Part shown: piece by piece, positions 42,001-48,000 of the stretch | Position numbering within the stretch: position 1 is the stretch's first letter | Layout of the letters: the number at the start of each line of letters is the position of its first letter | Assembly (NCBI GenBank): GCA_951813565.1 | Contig: OX638351.1 | Location: forward strand, 3,776,001-3,840,000 | DNA length: 64,000 bases | Direction of reading: 5' to 3' | Source: an uncultured Poribacteria bacterium | GTDB lineage: Bacteria; Poribacteria; WGA-4E; WGA-3G | Position numbers: made by a program

Positions 42001-45000
42001 TTTTAAACTACTGCCCAAATTCCTCAATTAAAATCTTTTTCGCATTTTTTTAAACCGTTTTCCTAAATTCTCCCCTCTTTATAACCGAAATCTAATTGGG
42101 AATTCTGTTTATGCACTACAATTTTATCACTCCAAACAACTTAACAGATGCAGAACTGGTTCGGCTTGTTCAAGCTCGCGATGAATCAGCATTCACGGAA
42201 TTGGTGTCTCGTTATAGCCCACGAATTTGGAATATCGTTGTCGAAAATTCGAGGCAAAGACGGGATGCGGAAGAAATTCTCATGGACATCTGGCTGGCTG
42301 TTTGGGAAAACATCATCGGTCTACGAAAAGCGGAAAGTTTTGGCGGCTGGTTACGCAGAATTGCTTACACCGCCTGCAACAGATACTACGCCTCCAACTT
42401 ACATCGGCAAAACGAAATTGTGCTTAGTTATGAAGATTTAGCTTTGCAGATTGATAGAGAAGCAGAACAGCGTTTTCATGATGCAAGCCTCAGAGCAGAT
42501 GCAAGAGAGGCTGTCCATCACCTTCCACAGAAGGTGCGGTCTGTTGGAATATTGTACTACCTCGAATTGTGGAGTATCAAAGAGATTGCAGATGAACTCA
42601 ACTTAGCAATCGGCACAGTCAAGACGAAGCTAAGCGAAGTCCGACAACTGCTCCGCAAGGAATTTGAGGTAGAGATAGAACCTATAAGGAGGGGAACTAT
42701 GACTCTTGAACAGAAAAAATCTGATAATTTGCAAACCAAGATAAAAGTTATAGGAGTCGGCGGAGCAGGTTGCAATGCTATAAAACGAATGATTGAAGAA
42801 GACTTCGTAGGCATTGAATTCTGTGCTGTTGATACCGATAAGGACACACTTAGCACATGCAACGGTGCAACACAAGTGCAAATAGGTGTTAACACTACTC
42901 AAGGCAGTAGCGCAGATGGAAATTTGGAAATCGGGAAAAGAGCGGCTGCGGAAAACATGGATGAACTCCGATCTATTGTTTCAGACGCAAAAATGGTTTT
43001 CATTACCGCAGGCATGGGCGGTGGAACCGGCACAGCCACTGCACCTCTAATAGCGTCGCTTGCACGAGAGCAAGGGGCATTAACAGCCTGCTTTGTAACA
43101 CGCCCGTTCGATTCTGAAGGCGAACACCGTGCTGAAAAAGCGGCGTATGGATTACGAGAATTGCAAAATAGTTCACGTGTCTGTGCGGATGCTGTTGTCG
43201 TTGTGCCGAACCAACGAGTTCTTGATATGATTGACCAAGAATTGCCGATACAGGAAGCGTTCCAAAAAAGCGATGAAATCCTGGTCCAAGGCGTTAGATG
43301 CATTGCAGATATGCTTGTAGAAACTGGCGAAATTTCTCTTGACTTTGATGATATTCAAAGTGTGCTGCGTGACCAAGGGTCTATTCTCATGGGTATTGGA
43401 AAAGCAAAAGGTGAAAATCGCGCGAAAATCGCTGCAGAAAACGCAATTTCCTCTCCTTTACTTGAAGAAAACAGTATTGCGGGAGACGGTGTGTGGATTG
43501 TTAACATTGCCTCGCCGCCAAATTTCACAATGCAGGAATTGGATCAAGCCATGAAAATCATTGTAGAAACATGTGAAAATGCCCAACCTATCTTCGGATT
43601 AGTCTACAAGGATGAATTAGAACTTAACGATGAAGTTCTTGTAACTGTCCTTGCTAATGGACTTGATTCACAAAAAGAACAGGTTTCTCCAATTTCTTCC
43701 AGCGAACGTAGTGCATCTACTGGCCAAGGCAATGTTATTTCGCCTTCAAGCGGTTCAGAATTTGTTCATCTACACAATCACAGTGAATATAGCTTGTTAG
43801 ACGGTGCGTGTCGAATCCCAGATATGGTGCAGTGGGCAATTGAGAACAGTTCGCCTGCTGTTGCACTTACAGACCACGGTAACATGTTCGGTGCGTGGGA
43901 ATTTTACAACACTGCTAAAGCAGCAGGTGTTAATCCCATTGTCGGATGTGAGGTATATGTTGAAACGGAAAAAGAAAAATCAGATAGCAATTCCCAATGT
44001 TCACCGTCCCATCTCACCTTACTTGCAGAAGACACTGTAGGATATCATAATCTTTTAGAATTGACATCACTGGGATATACAGAAGGTTTCCATAGAAAAC
44101 CGCGCATCAACCTGGAAATGCTGCGTGAACATCACGGTGGCATTATTGCACTGACAGGATGCATTAATGGAATAGTGCCGAAGCTAATTTGTTCTAATCA
44201 AAGAGACGAAGCAGTCCGAAACTTGTTAGAATTGAAAGACATCATGGGAGAGGATAACCTCTTTGTAGAAGTTCAAAACCACTATACTGATGAGGAGTTA
44301 ACGACATATCCAGTGATGGTTGAGTTCGCAAATGAATTCAATCTTCCTATCGTGGGGTCAAACGATTGCCACTACCTCCGAAAATCCGACCACCGCATGC
44401 ACGAGGTCCTTCTCTGTATCCAGACAAAGAAGACCGTCAACGACCCAGAACGGATGCGATTTAACAATCATTTTTACTTTAAAAATGTTGACGAAATGCG
44501 GGAAGCACTTAAGGATTATCCACCCGAAGCAATTATCAATACAGTTGAAATTGCTGATCGGTGTAATCTGAAACTGGATTACGACAAAAGTGTGATGCCA
44601 ATATTTGAGATTCCTGATGGACATACACATAACAGTTATCTGAAAGAACAGTGCTACAAAGGTTTGCAAGAAAAATATGGAGGACATATCTCTGAACCGA
44701 TTCATAGGCGGTTGGATTATGAACTGGATGTTATTCAACAAACTGGTTATGCAAATTATTTTCTGATTGTCGCAGATTACGTCGGCTACGCCAACGAACA
44801 AGGTTATTTACTCTCTGCTCGCGGTTCTGCTGCAAGTAGCCTCGTGCTTTATGCGCTCGGTGTAATCAATTTCAATCCGATGGATCATGGGTGTTTGTTT
44901 GAAAGGTTTTTAAATCTTAATAGAATAAATCCGCCGGACATTGATATAGATTTTGCTGCCCATGCCCGTGACGATGTGATTGATTACCTCGTGAGGAAAT

Positions 45001-48000
45001 ACGGTCATGATTCTGTCGGTAAAGTTGCTACCTTTGCTAAGTTGGGGGCAAAAACTGCTATCAAAGATGTCGGACGTGCACTTGAAATCCCTCTTGATAA
45101 CATAGATACCTTGACAAAACTAATTCCAAACCAGCCGGGGATTGCGCTTGATGATGCTTTGGAACAAGTGTCTGAATTTCAGACGCTTGCTGAACTCCCT
45201 GAAAATAGAGAGTTAATTGAAATTAGCAGAGCAGTAGAAGGTATGAAACGGCATGTCTCATGTCATTCATCTGCAATTGTGGTTTCAAACGGACCACTTA
45301 GCAATTACGCCCCACTTTTCAAGGATAGACATGGACAAATCGCAACGCAATTTGAGGGAAAAACGGTTGAAGATGTTGGCATTATTAAACTTGATACACT
45401 TGGTGTCCGAAGTCTTTCAGAGGTTGCTGATTGTCTCAATATGATTCTGGAAAACCGTGGTCGCAGGATTGCACTTGAAGATATTCCATTTGACGATAAA
45501 CCGACTTATTCACTCATTAGTGAAGGATTGATTGCTGGGTTGTTCCAACTCGAAACCTCTTTCGGTATGTATAATGTGGTTACCGAACTTAAGCCAGAAA
45601 ATTTTGAGGTATTTTCCGCAATTCCTGCGCTTTATCGTCCAGGTCCGTTAGAAAGCGGCATGATGCAGCAGTTTATCAACCGAAAAAATGGATTAGAATC
45701 GGTGAGTTATCTGCATGCGTCGTTTGAGGATGCCCTTAAAAACACTTACGGTGTCTGTATCTATCAGGAACAGGTGATGCAAATTGCGTGTGATATTGCC
45801 GGGTTCACGCTTGGTGAGGCAGATATCCTCCGTGATGCGATAGGAAAAAGGAAAGTAGACGTCCTTGAAGAACAACGTCCGAAATTCATCAATAGGGCAG
45901 TTCAAAAGGGTATTTCCACTAAAGAAGCAGAGGAGATATACGACCACCTTGAACAACTTGGCAAATATGCTTTCAACAAATCGCACTCCGTAGCTTATGC
46001 GCTATTAGCCTACCGAATGGCGTATCTAAAAACGCATTATCCACATGAATTTATGGCAGCAATGATGACGGGAGAGGCAGCAAACAAAGAAAAGATAAAG
46101 CGTTACCAAGCTGAATGTGCGAAACTCGCTGACTTTTTGGATGTAGAAATTAATCTGTTACCGCTTGATATCAACACCAGCGAAAAGAATTGCACTGTGG
46201 ATGGAAACGATATCCGTTTCGGGTTTGTTGCTCTCAAAGGCGTGAGTGATGAAGTGAAAGATTTACTTCTTGTGAAAAGAAATCAGGACGGTTTATTCAC
46301 ATCGATTCAAGATTTCCGTGATCGTTTTGATTCAACAGAGATGGACAAAGAAGTGATTGAAAGTCTCGTCGCCTCAGGTGCATTTAACGCTCTTCCCGCA
46401 TAATACATCTTTCCTACCATCATGGGCAGGTCATTGTGTCTGCCCATCTTTATGTGCCGATTCCATCCCCTCTTACAAATGGATTGACTTTCCATAAAAT
46501 ATCTGATATACTTACAGAAACAGGCGCAGTTGATTGTAGGGTTCAAATTTATCCTTCACATTACCTTTATACTTCAGGAGATGGCGCGATGCAACCCAAA
46601 ATACACTCAGCCCCAGCAATCGTCTATCCCGAATCGGACGGTAAACCTATGGCAGAGACTGACTTACATCGAAATCTGATGTTTGATTATATTAAAATGC
46701 TAACACACCATTTTGAAAACAGGAATGACGTTTATGTATCGGGCAATTTGCTGATATACTATGAAGAAGGCAACCCCAAAAAGTCGGTTGCGCCTGATGT
46801 GTTTGTCGTCTTCGGCGTATCAGAAAAATCCCGTCGTACCTTTTTGACATGGGAAGAGGGGCAAACCCCAGACTTTGTGTTAGAGGTAGCAAGTGCCAGC
46901 ACACATCAAAACGACATCGGACATAAGAAAGATCTTTATGCGTCAGTACTTGAAGTTGAAGAGTATTATATCTACGATCCGTATGGCGAGATAAGTCCGA
47001 ACTTCATAGGTTACCGTTTAGTAGAAGGGGCATATCAAGAAATTGAGTTTGTTGATGAACGACTCCCTTCGCGTGTGCTTGGTTTAGAACTCGGTGAACG
47101 TGATGGTGTATTTGGTCTATACAACCCAGATACTGGAGAATGGTTGCAACCGCCTGAACAGCGTGCCGAACAAGAATCCGCTGCTCGGAAAGACGCTGAA
47201 GCTGAACTTGCAAAAGCCTTAGCTGAACTTGAACGTCTTCGTGCAACCATCAACGATTGATTTACATGTGAAATTTCAGACAGATATTCGTAAAGAGGTA
47301 AGATGAATAGTACCGAACGTTTCCACAACTTTACCCAAGTCGAACTACCGCAAGGTTTTAAGGAAAGACTCAATAGAAAGCAGGTAGCCGAGATTACGTT
47401 TTCACCGAACGGTTCACGACTTGCAGCAGGCGGTGCCGAACGAATCTGGGTATACGATTTAGCCAGTGGTGAACAGTCTACTGTGCTTTCAGGGCATACA
47501 GATAAAATCCGTGCGATAGCATTCGCGCTAGACAATCGCACCCTCGCCAGTGCAAGTGAGGACAGTACCCTCCGATTATGGGACGCAGACACTGCTAACG
47601 AAATAGCAACGCTCGCAGGCGAATCTTCAAGTTTAGTCAGTGCGTTAGCATCATCTCCAGACGGTGTGCCACTGACCGCGTGGAATGAGGAGACCGCGCT
47701 TATGTTAAGCGGTTCAACTGCTGACCCCGCCAGAATTAGAGCGTTAGCCTTCTCATCAGATGGAAATACGCTTGTGAGCGGCGGTGTGGACGGTAAAATT
47801 CGAGTCTGGGAATTAGAAACTGGTCGTCAGTTGTCATCTATTGCAGCACATGATGGATTAGTATTGGCACTTGCATTTTCCCCTGACGGCAAACTGCTTG
47901 CCAGTGGTGGATCAGATGCTACAGTGCGGTTATGGGAATTAGACAGTAAACATCTTCTTTCAACCTTTACCGCACATTCGGATTCGGTAAATGCCTTAGC

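Follow-up and report, generated by a model that had tools for sequence, protein, structure and literature searches.

A single gene that joins a sigma factor, a cell division protein and a DNA polymerase was revealed in a contig of an uncultured Poribacteria bacterium, within the window of 64,000 nucleotides that makes up the whole stretch of DNA analyzed. The gene, g03273 (42111..46403, + strand), is one open frame of 1430 aa comprising an ECF sigma factor, an FtsZ core (FtsZ*) and the PHP, palm, fingers and HhH parts of DNA polymerase III alpha (DnaE*). The gene is real and has been inherited vertically within one Candidatus Poribacteria family, and it carries its three modules on one polypeptide, separated by linkers that are poorly conserved and disordered in the model. 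We found no published description of a sigma/FtsZ/DnaE fusion. The gene suggests that, in a sponge-symbiont bacterium, gene control is linked to DNA replication and cell division in a way not described before.

The ORF listing of the window gives 42096..46403 (+), i.e., 1435 aa counted from a TTG codon. Translation from the conserved ATG at 42111 yields 1430 aa free of stops, and the aligned Met is the protein start in 30 of the 30 orthologs examined. Eight Pfam domains are over the cut-off: Sigma70_r2 (residues 31–95, score 26.3 vs. cut-off 24), Sigma70_r4_2 (131–180, 35.4 vs. 25.7), Tubulin, the FtsZ GTPase domain (210–374, 136.1), FtsZ_C (423–519, 62.7), PHP (553–724, 177.1), the palm domain DNA_pol3_alpha (842–1098, 279.6), DNA_pol3_finger (1103–1267, 177.2) and HHH_6 (1347–1428, 73.0). 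The motifs GGGTGTA, HLHNHSEYS and PDIDIDF are all found in the translation. Thus, the composition proposed in the initial annotation, one conserved intact gene built of these three parts, stands, as does its statement that normal ftsZ and dnaE genes are located elsewhere in the genome.

The organism is uncultured, its genome is metagenome-derived and some relatives of the gene are visibly decayed, as might be expected if the frame were a misassembled chimera or a pseudogene pieced together from duplicated fragments and now in decay. This explanation has a negligible probability and is refuted by several observations. Record 12 of run X8, a 2314 nt contig obtained in an independent study, spans 42075–44388 and crosses both module junctions; synteny is kept, with an ABC-permease gene upstream of the fusion in 23 of 29 ortholog loci (the neighbors here are ABC permease, TatD, Uma2 and WD40 genes); the long form is found in 51 of 101 family genomes; and all three modules are under purifying selection. 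RNA support consists of one 247-nt contig within the sigma part, from a poly-A library.

Pairwise omega values (36 pairs from 9 orthologs) were 0.05–0.18 for the sigma module, 0.16–0.36 for FtsZ* and 0.11–0.17 for DnaE*, while the linkers are nearly neutral (mostly 0.2–1.9; linker 2, 0.2–1.7). Counts on the tree gave 0.17, 0.31 and 0.20 for the three modules and 0.56–0.67 for the linkers (linker 2, 0.56). Constraint is strongest on the sigma module; FtsZ* and DnaE* evolve under weaker constraint than the housekeeping FtsZ core (0.049) and DnaE (0.056). No diversifying selection was seen: a crude tree-based count gave two sites with p < 0.1, neither of which would survive correction.

The fusion is limited to one Poribacteria family: 64 genomes from ten other families gave no match at the level of the fusion. 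Of 112 family genomes, 83 have sigma and FtsZ joined in a single frame, and 57 of these have the polymerase attached as well; the long form mentioned above runs in one frame from residue 1–3 to at least residue 1323. Conservation within the family is wider than first noted. The shorter sigma-FtsZ forms of about 550–630 aa, initially described as lacking DnaE, are by their sequences truncated descendants of the long fusion in which DnaE N-terminal remnants are retained (13 loci parsed). The stops reported within relatives are mostly explained by shorter natural C-termini. Stops inside the match were flagged for 7 of the 51 long-form matches, and the three ORFs that we extracted from these were whole (G012, 1347 aa; G002, 1341 aa; G015, 1426 aa). 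Genuinely decayed copies also occur, with an IS insertion (G036), a frameshift (G067) or an internal deletion (G071). By this sequence record the polymerase part has been lost repeatedly, leaving remnants behind; it thus appears dispensable, and the sigma-FtsZ* pair can therefore be regarded as the core of the device.

The sigma module (42111..42680, +; residues 1–190; Pfam and NCBIfam matches) consists of sigma2, a short linker and sigma4, and it looks like a canonical ECF sigma factor. The fusion protein scores 63.5 against the sigma70-ECF model TIGR02937 (cut-off 42.9), and both sigma2 (13–97) and sigma4 (107–184) are helical in the AF2 model. Upstream of the gene we revealed a −35-like box, TTTAAACC, preceded by a T run (42049..42056, +), and a −10-like box, CCTCTTTA (42074..42081, +), with exactly 18 bases from AAACC to CTCT. 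All 30 ortholog upstream regions contain the −35-like box, in one case as the variant ATAAACC and in one as GTTTAAACC; it also precedes the sister genes g01392 and L011 as well as a sigma-DnaN gene. The AAACC-to-CTCT spacing is the same in three paralogs of this genome. Further downstream lies a conserved 5′ leader, AAATCTAATTGGGAA (42088..42102, +), with a weak ribosome-binding stretch (GGGA), kept in orthologs and sister genes.

The pattern TTAAACC-N18-CTCTWTA gave 10 matches in five other genomes (none in the reversed control), and eight of the 10 precede genes of the fusion's sigma clade. Four exact sites exist in this genome: three before sister genes and one before a gene for a MacB-like permease, apparently split into two frames. 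No regulon outside the clade's own genes was found; a relaxed scan of the genome gave 8 matches and its reversed control 6. A different promoter, TGCAACC-N16-CGCGTCAC, stands before the other ECF fusions of the same genome, whereas a stand-alone 194-aa sigma of this clade in genus g2 has a similar one, TGAACC-N18-CTTTATA. These sequence patterns show a candidate clade-specific ECF-type promoter, TTTAAACC-N18-CTCTWTA, common to the fusion gene and its sister fusions and to almost no other genes. Autoregulation of the sigma part is probable because the ECF match is over its cut-off, the boxes occur in all 30 orthologs with a spacing fixed in the paralogs, and the promoter is unlike that of the genome's other ECF fusions but similar to that of the stand-alone g2 member.

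FtsZ* (42699..43667, +; residues 197–519) starts at FtsZ's own Met and stops where the globular core ends; its Pfam matches are Tubulin and FtsZ_C, and the fusion scores 306.6 against the ftsZ model TIGR00065 (cut-off 295.2). Residues 194–536 are 60% identical to the product of the genome's normal ftsZ. As previously noted, the C-terminal linker and peptide are missing: in the alignment the genome's own FtsZ has both and the chimera neither. The FtsZ* lineage is monophyletic inside the family (support 0.991), and its sequences place it as a single-origin duplicate of the family's own ftsZ. FtsZ* retains 43 of the 76 housekeeping-invariant columns of the N-terminal domain, 3 of the 14 of H7-T7 and 18 of the 27 of the C-terminal domain. 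As so few H7-T7 positions are retained and the T3 loop is altered, it is not certain that FtsZ* could co-assemble with housekeeping FtsZ. The AF2 model of residues 1–545 (pTM 0.58; pLDDT below 50 in the linker 187–207) showed no confident docking of sigma on FtsZ* and thus gives no support to a rigid, ECF41-like clamp within the molecule.

Linker 2 (43668..43760, +; residues 520–550) is poorly conserved and predicted to be disordered (pLDDT below 35 over residues 519–545). It is followed by DnaE* (43761..46403, +; residues 551–1430 plus stop), which, according to Pfam, NCBIfam and PDB matches, comprises PHP, palm, thumb, fingers and HhH. DnaE* begins at the DnaE N-terminus (SEFVHLHNHSEYS vs. 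MSSEFVHLHNHSEYS in the genome's own DnaE) and its end corresponds to residue ~891 of E. coli alpha, so that the beta-binding motif, OB fold and tau-binding domain are absent. The absence of the OB/tau end, also noticed initially, follows from the NCBIfam DnaE match, which covers positions 3–882 of 1151. Residues 547–1428 are 69% identical to the normal dnaE product; the lineage is monophyletic (support 1.0) and, by the same kind of comparison, a single-origin duplicate of the family's own dnaE. Housekeeping-invariant columns are kept in 61 of 65 cases in PHP, 55 of 62 in the palm, 37 of 52 in the fingers and 8 of 25 in HhH. Conservation is at least 90% at D945 and complete at D947 and D1095; catalytically, the module appears to be intact. 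Thus, FtsZ* and DnaE* lack the originals' handles for the divisome (linker, C-terminal peptide) and for the replisome (beta motif, OB fold, tau-binding domain).

The shorter sister gene g01392 (contig positions 1599382–1600596, +; 404 aa) contains, as reported, only the sigma and Tubulin domains. It is 60% identical to the long fusion over residues 1–402 and ends in helix H7, just short of the T7 loop. Within the sigma clade the payloads are FtsZ*-DnaE*, the FtsZ N-terminal half, full DnaN (beta clamp), WD40 propellers and a sigma2-like piece; stand-alone sigma members also exist. FtsZ* is tied to the replisome: members of its lineage (clade support 0.989) carry Pol III alpha in the present fusion and the beta clamp in genus g2. 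It should be mentioned that the protein library also contains an FtsZ fused to TIR and kinase domains (P0216).

At the sigma/FtsZ junction there is a putative in-frame internal ribosome-binding site, TAAGGAGG (42685–42692), followed by the ATG of Met197 (42699–42701; whole element 42685..42701, +). All 30 orthologs have this ATG, and M197 does not vary among the 50 sequences compared. In this gene none of the other in-frame ATGs, 32 in total, has as good a Shine-Dalgarno match, which ranks in the top 0.2% of codon positions; exact matching in the other orthologs gives just 4–5 nt in a G-rich stretch. The Shine-Dalgarno-like stretch and ATG are repeated in the sister fusions examined. Since this stretch precedes an invariant ATG, a second, sigma-less FtsZ*-DnaE* product is probably also made. 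The junction linker changes in length among orthologs by whole codons throughout.

It can be hypothesized that the sigma part acts as an autoregulated sigma factor recognizing TTTAAACC-N18-CTCTWTA, with FtsZ*/DnaE* as its regulatory extension, a copy of a self-assembling machine part. The ligands of the extension would be GTP, housekeeping FtsZ filaments and/or primed DNA; on binding them it would either sequester or free the tethered sigma, and transcription from the clade promoter would thereby report the state of division and replication. Free FtsZ*-DnaE* from the junction start might compete for the same partners and set a threshold. We favor this mechanism tentatively, as a whole giving it less than an even chance. 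Against it, the high conservation of the polymerase core (PHP, palm) is not obviously needed by a mere regulatory bait, sigma-FtsZ* docking is not confident in the AF2 model, FtsZ* is relaxed at conserved positions and no regulon was found beyond the clade's genes; the short exact Shine-Dalgarno matches outside this gene and its closest relatives count against the internal-start step.

Alternatively, the payloads may be dominant-negative fragments of FtsZ and Pol III alpha that brake growth: FtsZ lacking its tether, or reduced to its N-terminal half, would poison or cap Z-rings, and handle-less alpha would compete at primer ends, with sigma mainly as a positive-feedback driver of its own and sister genes that halts division and replication, in a dormancy or proliferation-control switch of the sponge symbiont. 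Truncated FtsZ is dominant-negative in E. coli, the missing parts are exactly the divisome and replisome handles, g01392 stops right before the T7 loop, an internal start would yield free payload, and the promoter lies almost only before fusion genes, so that the visible regulon is the payloads. A brake, however, has no need of PHP and palm catalytic columns that are kept almost in full; WD40 and sigma2-like payloads do not fit it, a full-length beta clamp is no obvious poison, and the diverged FtsZ* interface loops weaken the case for co-assembly. We consider it unlikely. Still less probable is an operon in disguise, in which sigma and FtsZ*-DnaE* are made and used separately, the missing stop is a tolerated accident and the fusion protein has no role. 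In its favor, all orthologs and sister genes examined have the start signals precisely at the junction, FtsZ* opens with FtsZ's own Met and N-terminal residues, and stand-alone sigma members exist; but the frame runs through the junction in the 83 family genomes and in all sister fusions seen, irrespective of the payload, the linker there changes only by whole codons, and an accident would not be expected to recur and persist with five different payloads.

Doubtful to a further degree is a guard function, in which copies of FtsZ, Pol III alpha and beta clamp would bait phage proteins, toxins or natural-product antibiotics in the sponge holobiont, attacker binding freeing sigma for a response. 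The three housekeeping proteins copied are all hubs and known inhibitor targets, the fourth exact promoter site precedes a MacB-type ABC permease gene, and FtsZ is joined to TIR and kinase domains elsewhere (P0216); yet that permease gene is seemingly split, diversifying selection is absent from the crude count, the neighborhood is no defense island and WD40 payloads do not fit. Finally, sigma could bring the tethered polymerase core to RNA polymerase at clade promoters, the nascent transcript or R-loop priming local synthesis, e.g., gene-specific copying or repair. Retained catalytic residues and most invariant PHP/palm columns, linkers predicted to be flexible, a promoter at a handful of sites and the joining of the FtsZ* lineage to alpha or beta clamp are in line with this, but it is very improbable: sigma-FtsZ* persisted while the polymerase was repeatedly lost, the FtsZ module sits between sigma and polymerase, sister genes carry non-polymerase payloads, and a core without a clamp-binding motif would have low processivity.

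For the preferred reading, an autoregulated sigma factor with an FtsZ*/DnaE* regulatory extension, a parallel is offered by the C-terminal extensions that control sigma factors of the ECF41, ECF42 and ECF57 types. In the part of the literature that treats ECF groups with C-terminal extensions, anti-sigma factors are described as typically absent (PMC7826278). Since such published groups typically do without an anti-sigma factor and the present clade swaps its extensions, the FtsZ*/DnaE* part may likewise be a regulatory add-on to its sigma factor.

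The open frame at 42096..46403 of the forward strand starts at a conserved ATG (42111) and encodes a protein of 1430 residues. It combines eight Pfam domains, all above their gathering scores, in the order Sigma70_r2, Sigma70_r4_2, Tubulin, FtsZ_C, PHP, DNA_pol3_alpha, DNA_pol3_finger and HHH_6. Hereafter this gene (g03273) is called the chimera, its residues 197-519 FtsZ* and its residues 551-1430 DnaE*. The sigma module is of the ECF (group 4) type and comprises sigma2 and sigma4 only (about 190 residues, without region 1 or 3). It scored 26.3 against a cut-off of 24 for Sigma70_r2, 35.4 against 25.7 for Sigma70_r4_2 (Pfam) and 63.5 against 42.9 for TIGR02937 (NCBIfam), and in the AF2 model it forms two helical domains, 13-97 and 107-184.

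The middle part of the chimera exceeds the ftsZ equivalog cut-off TIGR00065 (NCBIfam); it begins at FtsZ's own Met and N-terminal residues and reaches the end of the globular core. When it was aligned to the FtsZ of the same genome, which has a linker of about 110 residues and the C-terminal end ...WDIPAFLRVQQRR..., both the C-terminal linker and the conserved C-terminal peptide were found to be absent; the core is followed by a linker of 30 residues and then by DnaE. The final 880 residues correspond to positions 3-882 of the 1151-position DnaE profile (NCBIfam), beginning at DnaE residue 3 (SEFVHLHNHSEYS versus MSSEFVHLHNHSEYS). They match residues 4-891 of the E. coli alpha chains in solved structures, and the frame stops two residues further on. 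No beta-clamp-binding motif, OB fold or tau-binding C-terminal domain was detected in DnaE*, where the profile match stops at position 882 of 1151.

The genome, a single contig of 5.43 Mb, also contains a normal dnaE (1176 aa, 69% identity to DnaE*) and a normal ftsZ (448 aa, 60% identity to FtsZ*). A sister gene of 404 aa (g01392), composed of the sigma module and the GTPase half of FtsZ, is 60% identical to the chimera over residues 1-402. A third sister (L011, 310 aa, contig positions 3454035-3454961, reverse strand) carries a sigma module 57% identical to that of the chimera, followed by about 110 residues that resemble a second sigma region 2. At its junction stands GGIMSSEFV, similar to the DnaE N-terminus MSSEFVHLH, and the sigma-WD40 sisters have MSSELVNLH at that place.

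Eight public sequencing runs from three studies contain at least 0.93 of the words sampled from the chimera's stretch. In run X8, which comes from another study than the best-matching run, a single contig of 2314 nt corresponds to 42075-44388 with 13 differences and crosses both junctions, and a second contig covers 44364-46500. A run of 2016 provided contigs for the sigma/FtsZ junction as well as for the part from 43972 onward. An ABC-permease gene (40517..41626) lies directly upstream in 23 of 29 ortholog loci belonging to three genera. The junction-crossing contigs of other studies, this shared upstream neighbour and the constraint on the modules described below led us to reject both a pseudogene and an assembly artefact. 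The single RNA-library run, with 0.06 of the words present, yielded a contig of 247 nt in the sigma part and a partial match of 40 nt, which is short of a full transcript and of its 5' ends.

Next to the chimera lie the ABC permease, TatD, Uma2 and a WD40 gene; none of the 15 ORFs around it showed an anti-sigma domain. The gene for the Uma2-family putative endonuclease (46436..47260), directly downstream, is common only to the four closest relatives, and a DDE transposase is located nearby at 49014..49700. The intergenic region 41627..42040, 5' of the promoter, contains two copies of an element with GGGTTTCGCACGCT (three genome-wide) and a perfect hairpin, GGTAGGCGCGTTT...AAACGCGCCTACC; the hairpin arm occurs 23 times in the genome and is thus a small dispersed repeat. 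It should be mentioned that the window also encodes, at 56486..62239 of the forward strand, an ORF of 1917 aa with two UvrA_inter domains, a UvrA DNA-binding domain and an ABC domain, i.e., a double-length UvrA-like protein with two domain sets.

We next consider the distribution of the fusion. In total, 341 proteins of 786-2503 aa matched residues 1-560 of the chimera (E<=1e-10), and among the 120 matches listed all had the sigma and tubulin Pfam domains and 118 had PF07733. The relatives come from sources named Candidatus Poribacteria and are annotated as 'DNA polymerase III subunit alpha' or 'cell division protein FtsZ'. The long form, reaching in one frame from residue 1-3 to at least residue 1323, was present in 51 of 101 family genomes. 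When 176 genomes from across the phylum were sampled, sigma and the FtsZ core shared one frame in 83 of the 112 family genomes, and 57 of these 83 had frames of 1340 aa or more. The 64 genomes of ten other families gave FtsZ-level matches only (one in 61 genomes, two in 3), none near the score of the fusion, and within the family the sigma-FtsZ fusion was absent from the searched genomes of genera g2 and g4. Among the best 150 matches in 1.84 billion cluster representatives, those spanning the junction fell only in the fusion's own clusters and the remainder covered the FtsZ part alone.

Some variants differ in composition. A triple fusion of 1743 aa (P0109, encoded at locus L058, G083:C1:2600061-2604269; cluster of 25 member sequences) has about 320 extra C-terminal residues, in which no Pfam match was found. 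Two library proteins, P0128 (502 aa) and P0287 (1084 aa), pass straight from the sigma module (86% identical) to PHP, giving sigma-DnaE* without FtsZ*.

To judge how strongly the modules are maintained, we compared substitution rates. In nine close orthologs (36 pairs) dN/dS was 0.05-0.18 for sigma, 0.16-0.36 for FtsZ* and 0.11-0.17 for DnaE*, and that of the linkers scattered around 0.2-1.9. Tree-based omega for 30 orthologs was 0.17, 0.31 and 0.20, respectively, and that of the linkers 0.56-0.67. Housekeeping genes in the same genus gave 0.056 for DnaE (N-terminal 875 codons, 29 pairs) and 0.049 for the FtsZ core (17 pairs). Thus, the copies in the chimera are relaxed 2- to 6-fold, yet clearly constrained. 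A crude per-codon parsimony count for diversifying selection in the 30 orthologs returned two sites with p<0.1, none of them convincing; its power is low because synonymous changes are almost saturated from one genus to another.

In maximum-likelihood trees the DnaE* parts formed one clade (support 1.0) nested in the housekeeping clade of the family (0.992), and the FtsZ* parts likewise formed one clade (0.991, in a tree without 9 of the 13 parsed sigma-FtsZ short forms) nested in the family's housekeeping clade (0.999). The branches of both are about 2.7 times as long as the housekeeping ones, and the internal split of both clades tracks genera, g5 versus g6 + g1. The nested single clades and their genus-wise split indicate that FtsZ* and DnaE* are old duplicates of the family's own genes, inherited vertically. 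Other duplications were encountered in the family as well. Extra full-length dnaE paralogs of 1116-1168 aa occur in some genomes of the genus (loci L110-L114 in G020, G018, where there are two, G026 and G014); they are 66-76% identical to the housekeeping copy and form their own clade, apart from the chimeras. Tandem duplicates of dnaN occur in genus g4, and genome G009 encodes an FtsZ core of 316 aa without the linker.

The conservation of functional residues was studied in an alignment of 50 sequences. In DnaE*, the PHP motifs HLHNHS, TDH, CE and NDCH are invariant. The palm aspartates, D401, D403 and D555 in E. coli numbering, are D945, conserved to at least 90%, and the invariant D947 and D1095. 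A set of 30 housekeeping DnaE sequences across the class served to define columns with at least 95% invariance, and of these DnaE* retains 61/65 in PHP, 55/62 in the palm, 37/52 in the fingers and 8/25 in HhH. The retention of the PHP and palm columns means that the polymerase core looks enzymatically intact. In FtsZ*, residues G301, M302, G304, T306, G307 and T308 are invariant and the GGGTGT box is kept; the last G of the full signature GGGTG(T/S)G is replaced in genus g1. D411, F412 and D414 of the T7 loop (NxDFxD) are at least 90% conserved. The housekeeping-invariant columns retained number 43/76 in the N-terminal domain, 3/14 in H7-T7 and 18/27 in the C-terminal domain, and the T3 loop has changed from GLGAGANP to GSSADGNL in the chimera. 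Judged by these residues, FtsZ* looks like a GTP-binding protein with altered assembly or hydrolysis behaviour.

Shortened forms bear on the role of the polymerase part. Chimeras of the 1345-1356 aa class are devoid of the HhH domain. The tails of the sigma-FtsZ genes of 550-630 aa (13 of 20 fetched loci parsed) are remnants of the DnaE N-terminus: one ends in ...EFVHLHNHSEYSLLV before the stop, and another reads IPESVQLAIDNSVS, equivalent to IPDMVQWAIENSSP of the long form. These remnants rule out that the 550-630 aa genes represent a simpler ancestor. One close relative is cut after the same point as the short forms and adjoins an IS605-type gene; other damaged relatives have an in-frame internal deletion in one case and a frameshift in another. 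As far as these gene structures tell, the polymerase part of the chimera is dispensable.

A second candidate start was found at the sigma/FtsZ junction. Every ortholog has an ATG there, and M197 is invariant in 50/50 sequences though the flanking linker varies. A G-rich stretch lies 5-10 nt 5' of this ATG; in the chimera it reads TAAGGAGG, which is the top Shine-Dalgarno match of 32 in-frame ATGs and exceeds the GGGA at the annotated start. In other orthologs the exact match is only 4-5 nt long, as scored by a procedure that undercounts G:U pairing. Sister fusions have an (A)GGAGG-type sequence 5' of the junction ATG whatever their payload, and the junction frame is always open, its length changing by whole codons only. 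On the simplest reading of this pattern, the gene would yield the fusion as well as a sigma-less FtsZ*-DnaE* protein.

All 30 orthologs share a putative promoter 30-62 nt 5' of the ATG, composed of a T run, TTTAAACC, a spacer, CCTCTTTA(T)AAC and the leader AAATCTAATTGGGAA. This clade promoter, with its AAC-containing -35 box, can be written as TTTAAACC-N18-CTCTWTA and precedes the 30 orthologs as well as the sister genes; in both sisters of the same genome the boxes are the same and the gap from AAACC to CTCT is exactly 18 bases. About 20 other ECF-fusion genes of this genome have a different common motif, TGCAACC-N16-CGCGTCAC. The exact clade promoter occurs at four sites in the genome, namely at the three sister genes and at contig position 2184967, where a perfect copy, TTTAAACC-N18-CTCTTTATAAC, lies 5' of a MacB/FtsX-type ABC permease gene in two frames of 236 and 206 aa (2184967-2186359, forward strand). 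This copy may belong to a member of the regulon or be orphaned.

Five other genomes gave 10 matches to the promoter pattern versus 0 in the reversed control. They precede three triple fusions, one sigma-FtsZ half, two genes for sigma plus a sigma2-like region, two for sigma-WD40, one for WD40 without sigma and one unassigned ORF. A stand-alone member of the sigma clade (194 aa) in genus g2 has a similar promoter. In the chimera's own genome a loose regular expression gave 10 matches versus 7-20 in shuffles, and a scan with up to two mismatches gave 8 versus 6 in the reversed genome. These relaxed scans do not rise above background, so that the four exact sites alone are conspicuous, which gives no ground for a wider regulon. 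From the module scores and the shared boxes we infer that the sigma of the chimera is probably a bona fide ECF factor, autoregulated via the clade promoter.

The sigma clade, defined by at least 45% identity to the chimera's sigma module, was present in 41 of the 46 family genomes searched, in several frame-size classes. Sampled members carry double WD40 propellers (Pfam), joined directly and without a membrane segment. In two genomes of genus g5, members of 574-580 aa join the sigma module to an entire beta sliding clamp, each of the three DnaN domains included (L161 at G017:C1:2419950-2421850 and L162 at G031:C2:4212450-4214450), with the same promoter and leader and with AAGGAGG and an ATG at the junction. 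Genus g2 has DnaN-FtsZ* proteins of 694-710 aa, one of them 706 aa long, in which a complete DnaN is joined directly to the FtsZ core: L168 (G001:C1:2873068-2875185, reverse strand) and L169 in genome G007, with a cluster of 18 members. No sigma and no clade promoter were found at these two loci, and their FtsZ part groups within the FtsZ* clade (35 tips, support 0.989).

FtsZ* was thus seen only as a fusion, to sigma, Pol III alpha or the beta clamp. The partners of the sigma clade include FtsZ*, alpha or beta, and the Pol III partners of the FtsZ* lineage are alpha or beta. By gene-fusion logic, such alternative fusions suggest proteins that work together, which argues that a dedicated sigma factor is functionally linked to an FtsZ paralog and to subunits of Pol III. 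Other long combinations were also noticed. One library protein (P0216, 806 aa) unites a TIR domain, a Ser/Thr kinase domain and a full FtsZ core. ECF sigmas with long extensions are encoded in about 30 places of the chimera's genome, including 49807..52980 (reverse strand) of the window; the extensions comprise WD40 and BNR/Sortilin-type propellers, AhpC, an M61 peptidase with PDZ and a GFO/IDH/MocA Rossmann fragment.

It can be hypothesized that the chimera is an autoregulated ECF sigma factor whose availability would be set by what its tethered FtsZ* and DnaE* bind, the candidate ligands being GTP, FtsZ filaments or primed DNA; free FtsZ*/DnaE* from the internal start would then act as a competitor. 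We offer this regulatory-extension reading, the competitor included, tentatively, as possible rather than probable. The AF2 model of residues 1-545 (overall pTM 0.58) has confident domains, a junction with pLDDT <50 and no confident packing between domains, an arrangement more like beads on a string than like a fixed intramolecular clamp; contacts between the domains may still occur. With so flexible a junction, any control would operate by tethering or sequestration, not as a rigid lock. The observation that regulation explains least well is the strong conservation of the polymerase core.

The rival explanations are, in descending order of our confidence, a growth brake made of dominant-negative fragments, an operon in disguise, an inhibitor decoy and sigma-directed DNA synthesis. 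The boldest reading takes FtsZ* as a replisome-associated GTPase and the chimera as a promoter-targeted, GTP-gated device for DNA synthesis: sigma would attach it to RNA polymerase at a few promoters specific to the clade, where the intact polymerase core would extend a transcript-derived primer. In a milder version the FtsZ, alpha and beta copies would serve as built-in baits through which the replication and division machines, or their inhibitors, gate sigma. Both versions together seem to us very improbable. Such a device, if real, would naturally couple the initiation of transcription to local DNA synthesis.

Each of the three proteins joined in the chimera is a textbook core machine: sigma factors of transcription, FtsZ of division and Pol III alpha of replication. 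In the full-text searches and the main texts of the ECF classification papers we found no published case of the three on one polypeptide. The words 'FtsZ', 'tubulin', 'polymerase III' and 'Poribacteria' do not occur in the main texts of PMC7826278 and PMC7671368. A full-text literature search for Poribacteria with FtsZ and a sigma factor returned no description of such a fusion among the records listed, and one for ECF C-terminal extensions with an FtsZ fusion gave nothing relevant by title or abstract. Were the link regulatory, it would give the cell a new means of monitoring or curbing replication and division, which makes it interesting for slow-growing symbionts; a polymerase acting at promoters would be a new kind of DNA transaction. 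With soluble parts and a defined promoter, the main claims lend themselves to tests in vitro and in E. coli that need no culture of the organism.

Comparison of the chimera with known systems revealed a partial likeness to each of them. Like housekeeping FtsZ, FtsZ* has the tubulin GTPase domain, the C-domain, the GGGTGT box and the T7 aspartates; it differs in an omega about 5 times higher and in retaining only 64/117 invariant columns. DnaE* shares with Pol III alpha (NF004226/TIGR00594) the PHP, palm, thumb, fingers and HhH regions and the catalytic aspartates, but it sits behind FtsZ*, its omega is about 2.3 times that of the housekeeping copy and its HhH is relaxed; nearest to it in extent are the crystallised E. 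coli truncations alpha 1-910 and 1-917 (2hnh, 2hqa). In-frame internal starts give a full-length and an N-terminally shortened protein in CheA (long and short) and ClpB. The chimera resembles such genes in its conserved ribosome-binding-type stretch and ATG in an open frame at a domain boundary, whereas its predicted short product would be a FtsZ-polymerase fusion.

PhyR-type sigma mimics and sigma/anti-sigma hybrids have a sigma-like domain covalently joined to a signalling or regulatory domain. Unlike the mimics, the sigma module of the chimera scores as a regular ECF, has a canonical region 4 and its own conserved promoter; a non-functional, PhyR-like sigma mimic thus found no support. The closest parallel in layout is offered by ECF factors with fused C-terminal extensions, which are, among others, SnoaL-like in ECF41, ECF56, ECF294 and ECF295 and TPR in ECF42, and whose extension type follows the sigma clade (PMC7826278). 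As in these, the chimera consists of a minimal sigma2-sigma4 core followed by a fused extension (1240 aa, where >50 aa define such an extension), is without a recognisable adjacent anti-sigma partner and has a putative group-specific promoter, probably autoregulated, and an extension type that tracks the sigma clade. The known extensions are, in contrast, small ligand-binding or repeat domains. That of the chimera is a paralog of FtsZ and Pol III alpha (the beta clamp in sisters), exceeds 1200 aa, is joined by linkers predicted to be disordered and is preceded at the junction by a candidate internal ribosome-binding site and ATG.
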